In this document: positions 56,556 to 64,000 of the stretch, one piece after another
Position numbering within the stretch: the stretch's first letter is position 1
Layout of the letters: every line of letters starts with the position of its first letter
NCBI GenBank assembly: GCA_964399915.1
Contig: CAYNRN010000003.1
Coordinates: 2,064-66,063 of the forward strand
Source: an uncultured Planctomycetales bacterium
GTDB taxonomy: Bacteria; Omnitrophota; Gorgyraeia; Gygaellales; Profunditerraquicolaceae
Direction of reading: 5' to 3'
DNA length: 64,000 nt
Translations under genes and position numbers: made by a program
The notes under the pieces: generated by a model
Told to the model about the DNA's origin: nothing
Databases searched by the model: none
Seen by the model: the letters and a program-made list of their open reading frames with translations, nothing else

Positions 56556-57602
56556 ATGCTCAAAACTTATTATTGCGAATCCGCCCAACTCAAGACTTTC
56601 TATAACCTCTTAATAAAGAGTTTCCGCGTATTTTCGCCCGCCCCCAAAGAGTCCGTAAAAGGAGAAAAAGATTATTATTACCGCTTGGCCTCAGGCGAAG
56701 AGGAGCTTGTCTTTAACCCCTACAGGGTAGTTGAGCCGCTGAAATCGTTTTTTACCGCCCCCTTAGAAAAAGTAACGGATTATTTTACCCCCCAGGAAGA
56801 TGCCTCCCGGATAAATGAGAGAACAATCATCTTCGGGGTAAAGAGCTGCGATCTCCACGGCCATAAAATCCAGGATTATGTTTTTCTTGAAGGCGTGGAG
56901 GTAGATTCTTTATACGCCTTACGCAGGGAAAACACAATCCTCATCTCTTCCGATTGCACAGATTATAAGCAAGTCTGCCATTGCCTTGCCTGGTCGGTAA
57001 TGCCTTATCCCACGGAGGGATTTGATCTAAACCTAAGCCCCCTCAACGACGGATTCCTGGTTGATCTGGGTAGCTCCAAAGGGGAAGAGCTAATTGAGAA
57101 ATATAAAGAATTCTTTATGCTTGCTAAAGACAGCCAGATAGCCGCGCGCAAGGTCAAGCGACAGAATCTGGTAGAATGCCTCAAGAGGCACCTTTTGCCT
57201 CAAGGCCTGGTGGCGCAGGATAAAGCCCAGGAGGTCGTACGTTCGGGCTTTAGTTCCGAGACATGGAAAAAGTTTATGCTTACCTGCGTTGAGTGCGGAG
57301 GGTGTAACCTGATTTGCGACACCTGCCATTGTTTTCTGCTTGGCGACGCAAAGGCAGGCAATATAAACAAGAAGCTCAGGGTTTGGGATTCGTGTCTTTA
57401 CGCTAATTATGCCCGGGTTGCAGGAGGCGCAAACCCATTAAAAACCAGGGCGCAGCGTTTAAGGAACCGCTTTATCAAGAAGTTTGATTTTTTCGTGGAT
57501 AATATGGGTATTCCTGCCTGTTGCGGATGCGGCAGGTGTATCGAAGTCTGCCCGGGCAAGATCGATATCAGGGAAGTTTTGAAGGATTTAGCCAAGAAAT
57601 GA
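56556..57602 (+). CDS. Fe-S subunit resembling anaerobic sulfite reductase AsrA / sulfhydrogenase beta (HydB)
   Basis: Cys clusters CVECGGCNLICDTCHCF and CCGCGRCIEVCP. 348 aa, matching AsrA/HydB size. Confidence 0.6.
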   Translation: MLKTYYCESAQLKTFYNLLIKSFRVFSPAPKESVKGEKDYYYRLASGEEELVFNPYRVVEPLKSFFTAPLEKVTDYFTPQEDASRINERTIIFGVKSCDLHGHKIQDYVFLEGVEVDSLYALRRENTILISSDCTDYKQVCHCLAWSVMPYPTEGFDLNLSPLNDGFLVDLGSSKGEELIEKYKEFFMLAKDSQIAARKVKRQNLVECLKRHLLPQGLVAQDKAQEVVRSGFSSETWKKFMLTCVECGGCNLICDTCHCFLLGDAKAGNINKKLRVWDSCLYANYARVAGGANPLKTRAQRLRNRFIKKFDFFVDNMGIPACCGCGRCIEVCPGKIDIREVLKDLAKK

Positions 57603-57603
57603 A

Positions 57604-57649
57604 CCCTGTTACAAATATGTAGCGGGGGAAGGAAGGATTTGTAACGGGG
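57604..57649. repeat. Inverted repeat CCCTGTTACAAAT-N20-ATTTGTAACGGGG, copy 2 (1 mismatch between arms), ending at the start codon of the next gene
   Basis: Same arm sequence and exact 20-nt spacer as 3537-3582. Confidence 0.8.
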
Positions 57650-58464
57650 TGAAAAATATCTACCGGCCGATAGAGGGGACAATCGAAGAGATCATTGTCG
57701 AATCGCCGACAATAAAGACCTTCGTGATCAGGCCGAAGGAGGGTTTTTCCTTCAGGACCGGCCAGTTCGTAGAACTTACGCTCCCCGGCTTAGGCGAAGC
57801 GCCGTTTACCCCTTCGTCCGATCCCAATATCAAGGATAAGATTGATGTGACAATCATGAAGGCCGGGCATGTCACCTCGCTATTACACGCTGCCTCAAAG
57901 AATATCTCAGTAGGAATCCGCGGGCCCTACGGTAAGGGCTATCCTCTGGAGAGTTTCCAGGGTAAGGACATCTTAATCGTAGGCGGCGGAGTGGGGTTAG
58001 CGCCCCTGCGCTCTCTATTATTCAGCCTGTTTGCTACTATCGACCTTTATAATAAGGTAGTGCTGCGTTATGGTTCACGTTCGCCTGCGGATATAATCTA
58101 TAAAGGGGCTATCCCGCAATGGGGCAAAATGAAGAAAGTGGATGTGGTTACCTCGGTTGATGTGGGTTCGCCCGAATGGAAGGGGAACGTCGGTTTGGTC
58201 ACCACGATTTTAAACGACCTGCCGGTAGACCTAAAAAAAGCGGTAGCGATAGTCTGCGGCCCGCCGATTATGATGAAATTCGTGACCTTGAAGTTACTGG
58301 ATGTAGGTTTTAAGCCGAAGGATATATATCTTTCTATGGAGAAGAGTATGTCCTGCGGATTAGGTAAGTGCGGCCACTGCCGTATTGGCAAATATTACAT
58401 CTGTAAAGACGGCCCGGTGTTTACTTACGAGCAGTTGAAGGATGTGCACGATATCTGGGATTGA
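57649..58464 (+). CDS. FAD/NAD(P)H-binding [2Fe-2S] subunit resembling AsrB / sulfhydrogenase gamma (HydG) / PyrK
   Basis: FNR-like N-terminus (TGQFVEL), NAD-binding ILIVGGGVGLAPL, C-terminal CGLGKCGHCRIGKYYICKDGPVF 2Fe-2S motif. GTG start. Confidence 0.65.
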   Translation: MKNIYRPIEGTIEEIIVESPTIKTFVIRPKEGFSFRTGQFVELTLPGLGEAPFTPSSDPNIKDKIDVTIMKAGHVTSLLHAASKNISVGIRGPYGKGYPLESFQGKDILIVGGGVGLAPLRSLLFSLFATIDLYNKVVLRYGSRSPADIIYKGAIPQWGKMKKVDVVTSVDVGSPEWKGNVGLVTTILNDLPVDLKKAVAIVCGPPIMMKFVTLKLLDVGFKPKDIYLSMEKSMSCGLGKCGHCRIGKYYICKDGPVFTYEQLKDVHDIWD

Positions 58465-58958
58465 TGAAAAGACTATTCGTTGACCTCGACGTCTGTAACA
58501 GTTGTAAAGAATGCGTGGTACTTTGCGATTATTTTTACCATCCGCAGAACAACGGCATTGCTTCGCTTCGGGAATATGCCACCTTTGCGACGATTTGCCG
58601 CCATTGCGACGAGGCGCCCTGCGTCAACGCCTGCTATCATAATGCCCTGGAGCGAGCCGCAGACGGACACCTTAAGAGGTATAAGATGCGTTGCACCAGC
58701 TGTAAGGCCTGCAGCCTGGCTTGTCCGTTCGGTATAATCTTCCAAGATTTCATACCTTATCTTGACTCGCGCTGCGATTATTGCATAGGTTCAAAAGGCA
58801 GGCTTCCTAAATGCGTAACCAGCTGTACGCACAAAGCGGTTGAAATAAGGGAAGTAGAAGAGAGCTTAGAGAATAATATCTTTTTTGTGGGAGAACATCT
58901 GGCAGTACATTCGCGTAAGTGGTTGCGCGAAGATCTACAGCTGCCCAGAAAGAAGTAG
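58461..58958 (+). CDS. Poly-[4Fe-4S] ferredoxin (EchF/HycB/NuoI-like)
   Basis: Motifs CNSCKECVVLC, CRHCDEAPCVNAC, CTSCKACSLACP plus an extra CDYC...C..C cluster. Confidence 0.65.
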   Translation: MMKRLFVDLDVCNSCKECVVLCDYFYHPQNNGIASLREYATFATICRHCDEAPCVNACYHNALERAADGHLKRYKMRCTSCKACSLACPFGIIFQDFIPYLDSRCDYCIGSKGRLPKCVTSCTHKAVEIREVEESLENNIFFVGEHLAVHSRKWLREDLQLPRKK

Positions 58959-59023
58959 CCAGGGATGAGTAGTGGGTATTGAGGGCGGCCCTAACCCCTC
59001 ACTACTGGCTACTCACTACTAAC

Positions 59024-59938
59024 ATGTTGAAATCATTTTTTTATTATTTTATATTTCCCGGTTTCCTCTTTGCCGCCTCTGTCGGCTTAATCGCCGGCTG
59101 GGTTGACAGAAAGGTCACCGCGCGGCTGCAGTGGCGTAAAGGCCCGCCATGGCATCAGAATTTTACTGATATTGTCAAGTTAATAGGCAAGGAAGTAATC
59201 GTGCCTGCCAACGGCAGGTGGGTATTTTTACTTGCCCCTTTTATCGGGTTACTGGCTGCTTCTCTTGTGGCTGCGCTAGTCGGGGTCTCTATAATTCATC
59301 CTCAGCAGAGTTTTGTCGGAGACTTGATCGTAGTGCTCTACCTTTTAACCATTCCGGCGATATCCATGATTATTGCCGCCTCGAGCTGCGGTAATCCGCT
59401 TGCTTCCGTAGGCGCTTCCCGGGAGATAAAGCTAGTCTTAGGATATGAATTACCTTTTATAATTTCTATAGTGGCGATGGCCATTAAATCATCCGGCGCC
59501 ATCCAGCTGGGTTCAATTCTTAATATCCAGGCTGCTTATGGTTCAAACATAGCCTCCTGGTCGGGATTCTTCGCCTTTATAGTTGTCATTTTCTGTATTC
59601 AGGCGAAACTTGGGTTTGTCCCCTTTGACGCTTCCGAGGCGGAGCAGGAGATTGTCGGAGGCGTTTTGATAGACTATTCCGGAGTACTGCTTGCGTTATT
59701 CAAGCTTACCAAGGCAGTGCTTCTATATACGCTGCCGCTCTTTATGATAATACTTTTCATGGGTAAAGATTTGAGCCTGTTGTTTCTGGCGCTTAAATAT
59801 ACGGGTATACTGGTAATCATTATCCTGATAAAAAATACCAATCCCCGATTGCGCATTGATCAGGCAATGAGGTTTTTCTGGGGGCCGGTAACGCTATTAG
59901 CGATAGCAGCATTAATACTGGCGTCAATTGGACTATAA
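59024..59938 (+). CDS. Membrane subunit of group-4 hydrogenase (NuoH/EchB/HycD family)
   Basis: NuoH-like pattern (RKVTARLQWRKGPP). 8 TM helices. Start taken at ATG 59024 (MLKSFFYY...); the ORF track extends to 58979 through an intergenic palindrome. Confidence 0.7.
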   Translation: MLKSFFYYFIFPGFLFAASVGLIAGWVDRKVTARLQWRKGPPWHQNFTDIVKLIGKEVIVPANGRWVFLLAPFIGLLAASLVAALVGVSIIHPQQSFVGDLIVVLYLLTIPAISMIIAASSCGNPLASVGASREIKLVLGYELPFIISIVAMAIKSSGAIQLGSILNIQAAYGSNIASWSGFFAFIVVIFCIQAKLGFVPFDASEAEQEIVGGVLIDYSGVLLALFKLTKAVLLYTLPLFMIILFMGKDLSLLFLALKYTGILVIIILIKNTNPRLRIDQAMRFFWGPVTLLAIAALILASIGL

Positions 59939-60010: not shown

Positions 60011-60433
60011 ATGAATCTTACATCAAAAGCACTAACCAAATCAATCGGGGTATTCCACGCGGCCTGCTCTCCGTGCAATAACTGCGATATCGAGATACTG
60101 GATGCGCTCACCCCGAAACACGACCTTGAGCGGTTTGGGATTACCCTTGTGGGCAGCGCCCGCCATGCAGATGTGCTTTTAGTTACCGGTGTGCCGAACT
60201 ATAAAACCGCCGAGAGGCTGAAAAAACTTTATTTACAGACCGCAAAGCCGTGTCTGGTAGTTGCCGTCGGAGGCTGTGCCTGCGGGAGGATCATGTTCAG
60301 GGATTCATACAATAGCCCCTGCGCTGTTGACGAAATCGTGCCGGTAGACCTTTACATACCGGGTTGTCCGCCGAAGCCGGAGGCGTTGATTGCCGGAGTA
60401 GTGAAGTTACTCGCCAAGCTTAGAGGAAAATAA
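60011..60433 (+). CDS. [NiFe] hydrogenase small subunit (NuoB/EchC/HycG family)
   Basis: Proximal-cluster Cys (CSPCNNC, GGCACG, IPGCPPKPE). 140 aa. Confidence 0.75.
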   Translation: MNLTSKALTKSIGVFHAACSPCNNCDIEILDALTPKHDLERFGITLVGSARHADVLLVTGVPNYKTAERLKKLYLQTAKPCLVVAVGGCACGRIMFRDSYNSPCAVDEIVPVDLYIPGCPPKPEALIAGVVKLLAKLRGK

Positions 60434-60435
60434 AT

Positions 60436-60867
60436 ATGCAGGAAACAGTAGCGAAATTCCGGGAAAAATTCAGCAATCAGGTTATAAAGTCGCAAGAGAA
60501 ATCAACCCGCAGGCAGTATATAGAATTTTTACCACCGGATATTCCGGAGGCAGCGCGTTTTTTGTTCAAAGACCTCAATTGCCGTTTTGCCACTGCCAGC
60601 GGCATCGATACCCCCGAAGGAATAGAAATATTGTATCATTTCTCCGATGACCATACCGGAGAGGTGATCAGTCTGCGCACTATACTTACCGATAAAAAGG
60701 ACCCTCAGATACATTCCATCGCGACAATATTTCCGGCAGCGGAATGGATAGAGAGGGAAATCTGGGAATTGTTGGGAGTAAAATTTATCGGCCATCCCAA
60801 TTTGAAGCACCTGCTTTTAATTGACGATTGGCCGGAAGGAAAACACCCTTTGAGGAAGAAAGAATGA
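60436..60867 (+). CDS. NuoC/EchD-like hydrogenase subunit
   Basis: 143-aa NuoC-fold protein (IEILYHFSDDH...EREIWELLGVKFIGHPNL). Confidence 0.65.
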   Translation: MQETVAKFREKFSNQVIKSQEKSTRRQYIEFLPPDIPEAARFLFKDLNCRFATASGIDTPEGIEILYHFSDDHTGEVISLRTILTDKKDPQIHSIATIFPAAEWIEREIWELLGVKFIGHPNLKHLLLIDDWPEGKHPLRKKE

Positions 60868-62069
60868 GCCATAAAGTCATCGTACCCATAGGCCCGTACC
60901 ACCCTTTGCAGGAAGAGCCGGAATTTTTCCGCCTTTATGTGGAAGGGGAGAAGGTAGTTGATATTGATATCGTAATCGGATATATGCACCGCGGGATAGA
61001 GGAGCTTTCTGAGCATAAACACTTTGATCAGGTAGCTTTTTTAGTAGAGCGTATCTGCGGGATCTGTTCTTCGAGCCACCCCTATGCCTTTGTACTGGCA
61101 GTGGAAGATATTTTAGGAGGAGAGAGGAATGTCGTTCCGGAAAGGGCACTCTACATCCGCACCATAGTAGATGAGATGCAGCGTATCCACAGCCACCTGC
61201 TTTGGCTTGGGCTTGCGGGCCATTTTATCGGTTATAACACGGTATGGATGTGGGCATGGAAATACCGCGAGCCGCTGTTAGAGTGTTTTGAAGCGATCTG
61301 CGGCAACCGCAACCACTATGCGATGAGTAAGATCGGAGGCGTGCGCCGCGACATAGGAGAAGCGCATATACCGGTACTTGAAAAGACCTTAGATGAATTA
61401 AGCAGGGCAAGTGATATGTTCAAGGGCGCTGTGATGGATGACCCGGTGATTCAGGCGCGGCTTAAAGGCGTGGGGGTATTGACGCATAAGCAGGCAATTG
61501 ACTGGGGTACCGTAGGCCCTACTGCAAGGGCTTCCGGCGTAAACATCGACGTGCGCAGGGATGATCCTTACGGTGTTTACGACAGGGTAAGCTGGAATGT
61601 AATTTTACAGAAGGAAGGGGATGTCTTTGCCAAGACCATAGTCCGGATACTGGAGCTTTACGAATCGATCAGCATTATCCGCCAGTGCCTTAAAAAGATG
61701 CCTGCCGGAGCGATTGACGCCGATATTAAAGATATCCCTGCGGGAGAGGGGATAGGCAGGGTAGAGGCTCCGCGCGGAGAGTGCTTCCACTATATCAGGA
61801 GCGACGGCACAAACCGCCCGCTCAGGCATAAGATACGCGCCCCCAGCTACATGAACGTTGCTTCTAATAAAGTAGCGGCAATAGGCCAGACTATTTCCGA
61901 CACTACGATTACCTTAGCGGCAGTCGATCCCTGTTATTGCTGTACTGAGCGTGTAGCGGTATTGGATAAAGTCAACGATAAGAAGATCATGAACGGATGG
62001 GACCTGATTAAATTATCGCAAGGCAAGACAAAGCAGGTCCGGGAGAGCTTAAGTGCAAAACCTGAATAA
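60864..62069 (+). CDS. [NiFe] hydrogenase large subunit, group-4 type (EchE/NuoD-like)
   Basis: N-terminal Ni-Fe ligand motif RICGICSSSH (RxCGxCxxxH) and C-terminal DPCYCCTER (DPCxxCxxR). Start at ATG 60864 (RBS GAGGAAG, overlaps the upstream stop as ATGA); the ORF track's longer start is 60828. Confidence 0.8.
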   Translation: MSHKVIVPIGPYHPLQEEPEFFRLYVEGEKVVDIDIVIGYMHRGIEELSEHKHFDQVAFLVERICGICSSSHPYAFVLAVEDILGGERNVVPERALYIRTIVDEMQRIHSHLLWLGLAGHFIGYNTVWMWAWKYREPLLECFEAICGNRNHYAMSKIGGVRRDIGEAHIPVLEKTLDELSRASDMFKGAVMDDPVIQARLKGVGVLTHKQAIDWGTVGPTARASGVNIDVRRDDPYGVYDRVSWNVILQKEGDVFAKTIVRILELYESISIIRQCLKKMPAGAIDADIKDIPAGEGIGRVEAPRGECFHYIRSDGTNRPLRHKIRAPSYMNVASNKVAAIGQTISDTTITLAAVDPCYCCTERVAVLDKVNDKKIMNGWDLIKLSQGKTKQVRESLSAKPE

Positions 62070-62670
62070 TATAAAATCAGAGATTGTCGGCATGGCAAAG
62101 ATCGCGCTGGAGATGTGGAGGATAACCTTTCAATCCTTCATGGAGCATGACCCGGAACTCTTCCCGCAGATTACCGAAAGGGAGAATAAGCTCAATGACC
62201 TGGAAAAGAGCCTGACTCAGCAGCTGGTGGAACTGAGCAAGGCCACAAAGGATAAGGCCGAAAAAGAAAATATCGCGCTTTTTACGGGAATAGTCGGCGA
62301 TATTGAGCTGATCGGAGATTACTGCAAGGATATCCTTGAACGGATAGAGATCAAGGTTCAGGAAAAGCTGCTCTTTAGCGAAGACGCAGTAGCCGAATAT
62401 AAAGAATTGTACCAGAAAACAGCGGATGCCCTTGAGGAAGTAGTGCGTGCGCTTGAAAAGGGGCGCCTTACTTTGGCAAAAGAGATAGTCAGGGAATCCG
62501 CGGATATAGAGCGGCTCGTCGAACATTACCGTAAGCATCATAATCAGAGGCTGCTTGAAGGTATCTGCAGTCCGTTTGCCTGTAATATGTTTTTAAACAT
62601 GATAGATTTTACCGCGGCTATCTACTTCCATACTAAGAAGATAGCAGAGAATTTGACCAGGATAAAATAA
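62053..62670 (+). CDS. PhoU-domain-like protein embedded in the hydrogenase operon
   Basis: 205-aa all-helical protein with PhoU-like repeats (…DIELIGDYCKDILERI…). Overlaps the large-subunit 3' end by 17 nt. Confidence 0.4.
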   Translation: MQNLNNIKSEIVGMAKIALEMWRITFQSFMEHDPELFPQITERENKLNDLEKSLTQQLVELSKATKDKAEKENIALFTGIVGDIELIGDYCKDILERIEIKVQEKLLFSEDAVAEYKELYQKTADALEEVVRALEKGRLTLAKEIVRESADIERLVEHYRKHHNQRLLEGICSPFACNMFLNMIDFTAAIYFHTKKIAENLTRIK

Positions 62671-64000
62671 TGAATTATATGTTTTCGGCTATAGCGATTC
62701 CGCTTCTGGGGGCTTTTCTGATTATCCTGCTGCCCGGGAGGATTAAGGCTTATGCTTCGGTATCGGCTTTAGGTTTGAGCTGTTTTTTCAGCGTGCTTGC
62801 CGCCGTAAGCGTGCTTAAGCTAAAGGTATTCGTTTCCGAAAGATACATCACAGACTGGCTGAGCATATCTTTTGCCGCAGACGGTACGGCGGTTTTCATG
62901 GCGATAGTTTCATCGTTTGTAGCGTTTTTAATCTCTCTCTATTCCCTGGAGTACATGAAGGATTACGAAAACAGGGGAGAGTTCTATTTCTGGATGGTTT
63001 TATTCGTAGGCTCGATGATGGGGTTGATCTTCAGCGCCAACCTTATGCTCTTATACTGTTTCTGGGAGATTACCGCAGTCTGTTCTTGGAGGCTGATCGG
63101 GTTCTACAGGAAAGAAAAGGACCTTAAAGCGGCAGACAGGGCGTTTATGATTACCTTTTTCGGGGCATCGCTTTTGCTGGTGGGGATAGTTTTAACTTAC
63201 CTTAATTATTCAAGCACCGACATGTTTTTCTTAAGAGATAAGGCGCTGGTGAATACGGTCGCCTTTTTATTTTTAGCGGGGATAATCTCTAAGTCAGCGC
63301 AATTGCCGCTGCAGACCTGGCTTCCCGATGCCGGTGTCGCCCCGACGCCGGTTACCGCGCTTTTACACGCTGCAGTCCTGGTCAAAATCGGGGTTTATGT
63401 CTTTGCCCGGCTTTTTAACCTCACCTTTATTGCCTCTCCTTTATTTATGAACACCGCAATTTTTATCTCGGTATCCACGATAATCGTGGCAGGGGCTTGT
63501 GCCTTGATAGAGAATAATCTGAAAAAAATCCTGGCGTATTCTACGATCAGCCAGCTGGGCTATATCCTGCTTGCTTTGTCTTTAAACTCGGCGCTTTCCC
63601 TTAAGATCGCCCTGCTTTATATCCTGGCGCATTCTTTAGCTAAAGCCGGGCTGTTTCTTTGCGCCGGCATAGTTGAACACGAAAGCGGCACTAAGGATAT
63701 CAACGAGCTGGGAGGCCTGGCTAAGACCATGCCCCTTACTGCAACAGCCTTTCTTTTATCGGCTTTTTCTATCGTCGGAATCCCTCCTTTTTTAGGATTT
63801 TGGCCGAAGTTTATGGTAGTGGTTACGGCGCTGACAACCGGACATGCCATCGCCGGCGTATTTGCGATAATCGGGGCGCTCTTTACGCTGCTCTATCTTT
63901 TTAGGTTATTTGATAAGGTATTTTTAGGCGGTCAAAAGATCAGCGCCCGTGAAGGCAAAAACTCATTGATGGTATTAGTGGTGATGATTCTTGGCGTCCT
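62670..64000 (+). CDS. NuoL/NuoM/MrpD-family antiporter-like membrane subunit (EchA-like); 3' partial, runs off the window
   Basis: ATG 62670 overlaps the upstream TAA (TAATG). Motifs WLPDAGVAPTPVTALLHAAVLVKIGVY and ILAYSTISQLGYI are typical of NuoL/M/N. Not in the ORF track because no stop falls inside the window. Confidence 0.75.
   Translation, partial: MNYMFSAIAIPLLGAFLIILLPGRIKAYASVSALGLSCFFSVLAAVSVLKLKVFVSERYITDWLSISFAADGTAVFMAIVSSFVAFLISLYSLEYMKDYENRGEFYFWMVLFVGSMMGLIFSANLMLLYCFWEITAVCSWRLIGFYRKEKDLKAADRAFMITFFGASLLLVGIVLTYLNYSSTDMFFLRDKALVNTVAFLFLAGIISKSAQLPLQTWLPDAGVAPTPVTALLHAAVLVKIGVYVFARLFNLTFIASPLFMNTAIFISVSTIIVAGACALIENNLKKILAYSTISQLGYILLALSLNSALSLKIALLYILAHSLAKAGLFLCAGIVEHESGTKDINELGGLAKTMPLTATAFLLSAFSIVGIPPFLGFWPKFMVVVTALTTGHAIAGVFAIIGALFTLLYLFRLFDKVFLGGQKISAREGKNSLMVLVVMILGV

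Follow-up and report, generated by a model that had tools for sequence, protein, structure and literature searches.

The PhoU-fold gene at positions 62053 to 62670 of the window (the whole stretch of DNA analysed, 64,000 nucleotides) is a dedicated, translationally coupled and fixed member of a [NiFe]-hydrogenase operon. Among extant enzymes, the group 4 hydrogenases stand closest to the ancestor of respiratory complex I, and the inventory of their subunits is treated as well defined. The conserved PhoU-fold gene suggests that such a complex-I-like enzyme has an accessory or regulatory subunit not described before. With moderate confidence, we propose that the encoded protein is a lineage-specific subunit without catalytic function, which acts in an accessory or regulatory capacity on the cytoplasmic side of the enzyme, its subunit status being read from genomic evidence.

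The hydrogenase operon and its PhoU-fold gene

The operon and the junctions of the PhoU-fold gene comprise the following features.

56556..57602, + strand: first gene of the operon, Fer4_22 iron-sulfur protein, AsrA / sulfhydrogenase beta-like (Pfam PF17179, E=2e-27)
57649..58464, + strand: FAD/NAD(P)-binding and [2Fe-2S] protein, AsrB / sulfhydrogenase gamma-like (Pfam NAD_binding_1, DHODB_Fe-S_bind, FAD_binding_6)
58461..58958, + strand: 2x[4Fe-4S] ferredoxin-like subunit, here Fd2 (Pfam Fer4_11)
58979..59938, + strand: NuoH/EchB-like membrane subunit (Pfam NADHdh, E=5.6e-59)
60011..60433, + strand: NuoB-like hydrogenase small subunit (Pfam Oxidored_q6)
60436..60867, + strand: NuoC-like subunit (Pfam Complex1_30kDa)
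60864..62069, + strand: [NiFe] large subunit, NuoD-like, 401 aa (Pfam Complex1_49kDa and NiFeSe_Hases)
62041..62047, + strand: Shine-Dalgarno-like GGGAGAG within the large-subunit coding sequence, 5 nt 5' of GTG 62053
62053..62069, + strand: 17 nt shared by the 3' end of the large-subunit gene and the 5' end of the PhoU-like gene, translational coupling
62053..62670, + strand: PhoU-fold gene, 205 aa, GTG start and TAA stop (from ORF translation)
62668..62672, + strand: TAATG junction with the NuoL-like gene, read from the sequence
62670..64000, + strand: NuoL/MrpA-like antiporter subunit, 463 aa when complete, truncated at the window end (Pfam Proton_antipo_M, E=1.4e-68)

The large subunit contains both CxxC pairs (RICGICSSSH and DPCYCCTER), followed by a C-terminal extension. 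A downstream Mrp module and a NuoI-like gene lie beyond the window end, as seen in locus L001. Judged by its gene content, the enzyme is a group 4 [NiFe]-hydrogenase with an Ech/Mbh-type core of NuoH, B, C, D, I and L-like subunits, with or without Mrp, to which a predicted sulfhydrogenase beta/gamma-like NAD(P)H module and a 2x[4Fe-4S] connector are added. An earlier note on this DNA had spoken of an Ech-type complex; the group 4 core stands, but the enzyme is Mrp-linked (Mbh-like) rather than a plain six-subunit Ech.

The PhoU-fold gene is the single PhoU-like ORF in the 64-kb window, and its description in that note as a 205-aa ORF coupled on both sides is borne out by the 17-nt overlap and the TAATG. 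The large-subunit TAA is located at 62067-62069, and the gene therefore overlaps it by 17 nt, while the last A of its own stop codon (TAA, 62668-62670) is the first base of the NuoL-like ATG (62670-62672). The same -17 overlap between NuoD and the PhoU-like gene recurs in 22/46 species loci, and the gap from NuoD stop to PhoU-like start falls between -23 and +2 (overlapping or abutting) in 43 of the 46. The junction to the next gene in orthologues is mostly ATGA, a -4 overlap (19 of 25 measured), and AGGAG/GGAGG-like purine-rich stretches are found 5' of the aligned start in most orthologous loci. An alternative start at ATG 62092 (M14) was rejected, as the orthologues begin with an ATG aligned to GTG 62053 (44/46 orthologous loci); the conserved length of residues 1-13 among orthologues also counts against it. 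Scanning for promoters and terminators revealed no convincing internal signal near the PhoU-like gene, and an Rfam scan of the whole window gave zero matches. The median dN/dS of the gene is 0.052, compared with 0.041 for NuoB (13 unsaturated pairs), indicating purifying selection.

Fold, conserved residues and closest relatives

The protein matches Pfam PF01895 with 72.4 bits (gathering cutoff 23.5, E=4e-20) over two stretches corresponding to two tandem repeats. PhoU is its sole Pfam domain, with Na_Pi_cotrans (PF02690) absent from the 205 residues. The IELIGDYCKDILERI stretch is the canonical PhoU helix-3 motif, and the family profile matches PDB PhoU proteins. An AF2 model (pLDDT 91.7) contains six helices arranged as two three-helix bundles, which is the architecture of the PhoU fold, and 1sum ranks among the top structural matches. 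PhoU-like repeat signatures had been claimed from the letters alone, with a Pfam search and structure prediction suggested as checks, and the profile matches and PhoU-type predicted fold agree with that claim. By sequence, the protein is a soluble, acidic six-helix bundle (pI 5.4, GRAVY -0.33). Scores against the models TIGR02135 (50.4 bits, equivalog cutoff 130.25) and NF008332 (22.6 bits, cutoff 342) are both below cutoff, and the protein, as far as such profiles can tell, is not a canonical phosphate PhoU. We found no match to Hyp/HycI maturation families, nor homology to any characterised Ech, Mbh, FHL, complex I or Mrp subunit. The following elements were delineated within the gene.

62062..62361, + strand: PhoU repeat 1, helices 1-3, residues 4-103 (predicted helix limits)
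62362..62379, + strand: inter-repeat linker E104-K-L-L-F-S109, L106 and F108 invariant, common to Na/Pi-cotransporter C-terminal domains
62380..62661, + strand: PhoU repeat 2, helices 4-6, residues 110-203 (predicted helices, conserved residues)
62581..62631, + strand: rebuilt helix-6 motif C177-N-M-F-L-N182-M-I-D185-F186 ... H193, replacing LERIGDH; candidate docking surface

Residue conservation was scored over 47 family sequences. Repeat 1 retains the canonical acidic motif E85-x3-D89-x3-D93-x2-E96, the residues of which are invariant, and the likewise invariant E85-L-I-G-D89 aligns to lERiGDea of the PDB PhoU proteins. Whereas repeat 1 has this motif, the canonical ERIGD-type position of repeat 2 is occupied by N182..D185-F186, with no E/D-x-x-x-D. 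The residues of the helix-6 motif take the form N-x-x-D-F and are invariant across the 47 sequences, C177 nearly so. Repeat 2 also retains H163, R166, C172 and P174 of the NptA-type domain. Further invariant positions include C172, H163 and H193, with C91 nearly invariant like C177. A Cys/His metal site composed of C91, C172, C177, H163 and H193 was considered, and is not supported as family-specific because C91 and C177 vary in divergent operon-linked subfamilies, while C172, H163 and R166 are inherited from Na/Pi-cotransporter domains.

Relatives were searched among 1.84 billion representatives. Na_Pi_cotrans proteins of 530-580 aa figure among the next-best matches after the family itself, through their C-terminal ~200 residues, and their PhoU pairs score about 85-114 bits against the family profile; the relatives P0147, P0148 and P0152 consist of PF02690 plus PhoU. 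The NptA-type signature residues F108, S109, H163, R166, C172 and P174 are conserved and common to P0147-P0157. By these matches, the closest relatives outside the family include the predicted cytoplasmic C-terminal PhoU pairs of Na/Pi cotransporters. A search for natural fusions returned P0145 (331 aa), a chimera with an unrelated C-terminal part that is uninformative on a partner.

Conservation of position and co-divergence

The order NuoD, PhoU, NuoL-like gene (or contig end) was found in 46/46 species-representative loci and 80/80 metagenome loci, 126/126 in total. These loci were all retrieved using the PhoU-like protein as bait, so the survey shows that the family always resides in the operon, and not that every such hydrogenase carries the protein; the metagenome scan, made with alignment A4, returned mostly the same subfamily. 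A co-occurrence survey had been advised in the earlier note, and none of the related operons retrieved lacks the ORF or has it out of frame. The gene is present in all three downstream architectures, including an Ech-like one without Mrp, and its hosts are almost entirely metagenome-assembled genomes labelled Omnitrophota. Median identity to the window protein is 52.7%, near the values for NuoC (55.6%) and MrpF (53.4%).

Divergent subfamilies (25-45% identity) occupy other sites in this operon, in each case among its structural genes: NuoH-PhoU-NuoB (L053), MrpG-PhoU-NuoI (L052), a tandem pair after NuoD (L054), and copies directly after NuoD (L135, L136, L141). HycI and HypA/F/C/D genes follow the operon in L136 and L141, and in the arrangements surveyed the PhoU-like gene was never found among the hyp/hycI genes 3' of the operon. 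The position of the gene among the structural genes of the hydrogenase is a conserved feature and no accident. Anammox bacteria and Nitrospirota have a standalone subfamily that is more distant, and no hydrogenase genes were found near its members or near P0144. The idea that every small NptA-type PhoU-pair protein without the second motif is linked to a hydrogenase was therefore rejected, linkage not being general to this class.

We calculated mirror-tree distance correlations over 26 Mrp-type loci. PhoU distances correlate with those of Fd2 (0.88), AsrB (0.86), NuoI (0.83) and NuoD (0.81), a signal that reflects module-level co-inheritance and is not proof of contact, and show no correlation with NuoL2 (0.06), MrpD (0.005) or NuoK (-0.01). 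The same method recovered the known contacts NuoB-NuoD, NuoH-NuoI, NuoB-NuoC and AsrA-AsrB. The PhoU-like protein diverges in step with the module for hydrogenase activity and electron input rather than with the antiporter-like or Mrp genes. Membership of the membrane arm, as the earlier note had implied, does not fit a soluble acidic bundle that is kept in operons without Mrp and co-diverges with this hydrogenase and electron-input module.

Possible roles and comparison with known systems

The initial choice had been between a novel accessory or regulatory subunit and a mis-assigned helical bundle. The significant PhoU match speaks against mis-assignment, and the conserved placement among structural genes makes the accessory or regulatory subunit the leading reading. 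In such a subunit, a small ligand, either a divalent metal or phosphate, could occupy the repeat-1 acidic ExxxD site, and docking to the hydrogenase/electron-input part would be provided by the invariant surface of helix 6 together with the hydrophobic LLF linker. Once docked, the protein would modulate activity or coupling, by analogy with the action of PhoU on PstSCAB and PhoR, and with cytosolic helical domains that modulate other transporters. A more specific version, unlikely and put forward tentatively, is that a sodium-coupled phosphate transporter would have supplied its regulatory domain to the enzyme as a stoichiometric allosteric subunit, in which the repeat-1 acidic site would sense phosphate/pyrophosphate status or a divalent metal and gate electron input or ion coupling. 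We know of no ligand for NptA-type PhoU domains, which counts against the accessory or regulatory subunit, as does the fact that accessory maturation genes may sit inside hydrogenase operons, for example those of group 1 enzymes.

The main rival to a resident subunit is an assembly or maturation chaperone, which would attach to its client only while the enzyme is being built and would have left by the time the complex is mature. Candidate clients are the C-terminally extended large subunit and the NAD(P)H/ferredoxin module. The chaperone reading, although on balance improbable, would suit the cleavable nature of the large-subunit extension and the HycI and Hyp genes that follow the operon in several loci, and co-divergence with NuoD, Fd2 and AsrB is as compatible with a client as with a stably bound partner. 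However, in every arrangement surveyed the gene is situated between structural genes and translationally coupled, never accompanying hycI or hypA-F, and the protein bears no similarity to known Hyp/Hyc maturation families.

Rather less probable is a metal buffer or donor, in which the repeat-1 acidic site and Cys/His residues would bind Fe or Ni destined for Fe-S clusters or the NiFe site. Multinuclear metal clusters have reportedly been seen bound at such motifs in 1sum (a T. maritima PhoU homologue), and E85, D89, D93, E96, C172, H163 and H193 are invariant, with C91 and C177 nearly so; yet C91 and C177 vary among the divergent subfamilies linked to the operon, and C172, H163 and R166, being conserved in Na/Pi-cotransporter domains too, are not hydrogenase-specific. 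Loss of the second acidic motif would moreover halve the metal capacity instead of expanding it, and dedicated HypA/HypB-type genes occur nearby in related loci. We consider it highly improbable that the gene is an ordinary phosphate-signalling PhoU or a Na/Pi transporter remnant, hitch-hiking in the operon with no hydrogenase role, as might be read from the Pfam PhoU match and from the database names of relatives ("phosphate:Na+ symporter", "Na/Pi cotransporter family protein"). The TIGR02135 score (50.4 bits versus 130.25) argues against it, and no pst, phoBR or Na_Pi_cotrans genes were found in the window operon or in related loci with Pfam-annotated genes. Operon membership survives rearrangements, with a dN/dS of 0.05 and overlapping stop and start codons, and the second PhoU motif has been replaced by a new invariant one.

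If the protein is indeed a subunit, this enzyme clade has a component unrecorded in the current hydrogenase classification, one that would provide a concrete handle on regulation or assembly of such enzymes in Omnitrophota, a widespread uncultivated phylum. It would represent the regulatory domain of a sodium-coupled transporter re-used in free-standing form in a different ion-translocating machine, and the database names quoted above would be misleading and could distort metabolic reconstructions. Should the allosteric reading be true, an enzyme of the complex I superfamily would contain an integral ligand-sensing regulatory subunit.

The operon shares the NuoH, B, C, D, I and L-like set, with or without Mrp, with group 4 [NiFe]-hydrogenases such as Ech and Mbh, and has in addition the NAD(P)H module of sulfhydrogenase beta/gamma-like type. 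Such enzymes of Omnitrophota have been reported as group 4g and Mrp-linked (PMC8542988, PMC10066038), HydDB group 4g being the label in use for them. The published descriptions of group 4/4g enzymes that we examined do not mention a PhoU-fold subunit, and our literature search found no paper linking PhoU with group 4 hydrogenases, Mrp or Omnitrophota.

PhoU proper works by binding a membrane transport complex as an adaptor (PMC4423584, PMC9239213), and helix 6 of Salmonella PhoU is a partner-binding surface that binds PhoR (PMC9239213). The first ExxGD motif of the window protein aligns with that of PhoU proper (4q25, 1t72, 2i0m, 1sum, 1xwm), but identity in structural alignments is 13-18%, the TIGR02135 score is sub-cutoff and the helix-6 motif is rebuilt. 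The cytosolic helical domain of ALMT, the CorA cytosolic domain and PH0236 (PhoU-like plus TrkA-C) resemble it in fold only (6-18% identity); we found no evidence of common descent with ALMT/CorA-type helical domains, the PhoU-like members excepted.

The nearest comparison is with Na+/Pi cotransporters of the NptA/YjbB type (PF02690 plus 2x PF01895), which share the ~200-aa PhoU pair in a two-repeat layout, the L-x-F-S linker and the H..RL..G-x-C-x-P motif. The cotransporters retain a second LERIGDH where the family has N-M-[FY]-L-[ND]-M-L-D-F...H, and the window protein, in contrast, is a free-standing 205-aa product of a hydrogenase operon, with no transporter domain. The likeness is that of a cytoplasmic helical module on an ion-coupled membrane machine.

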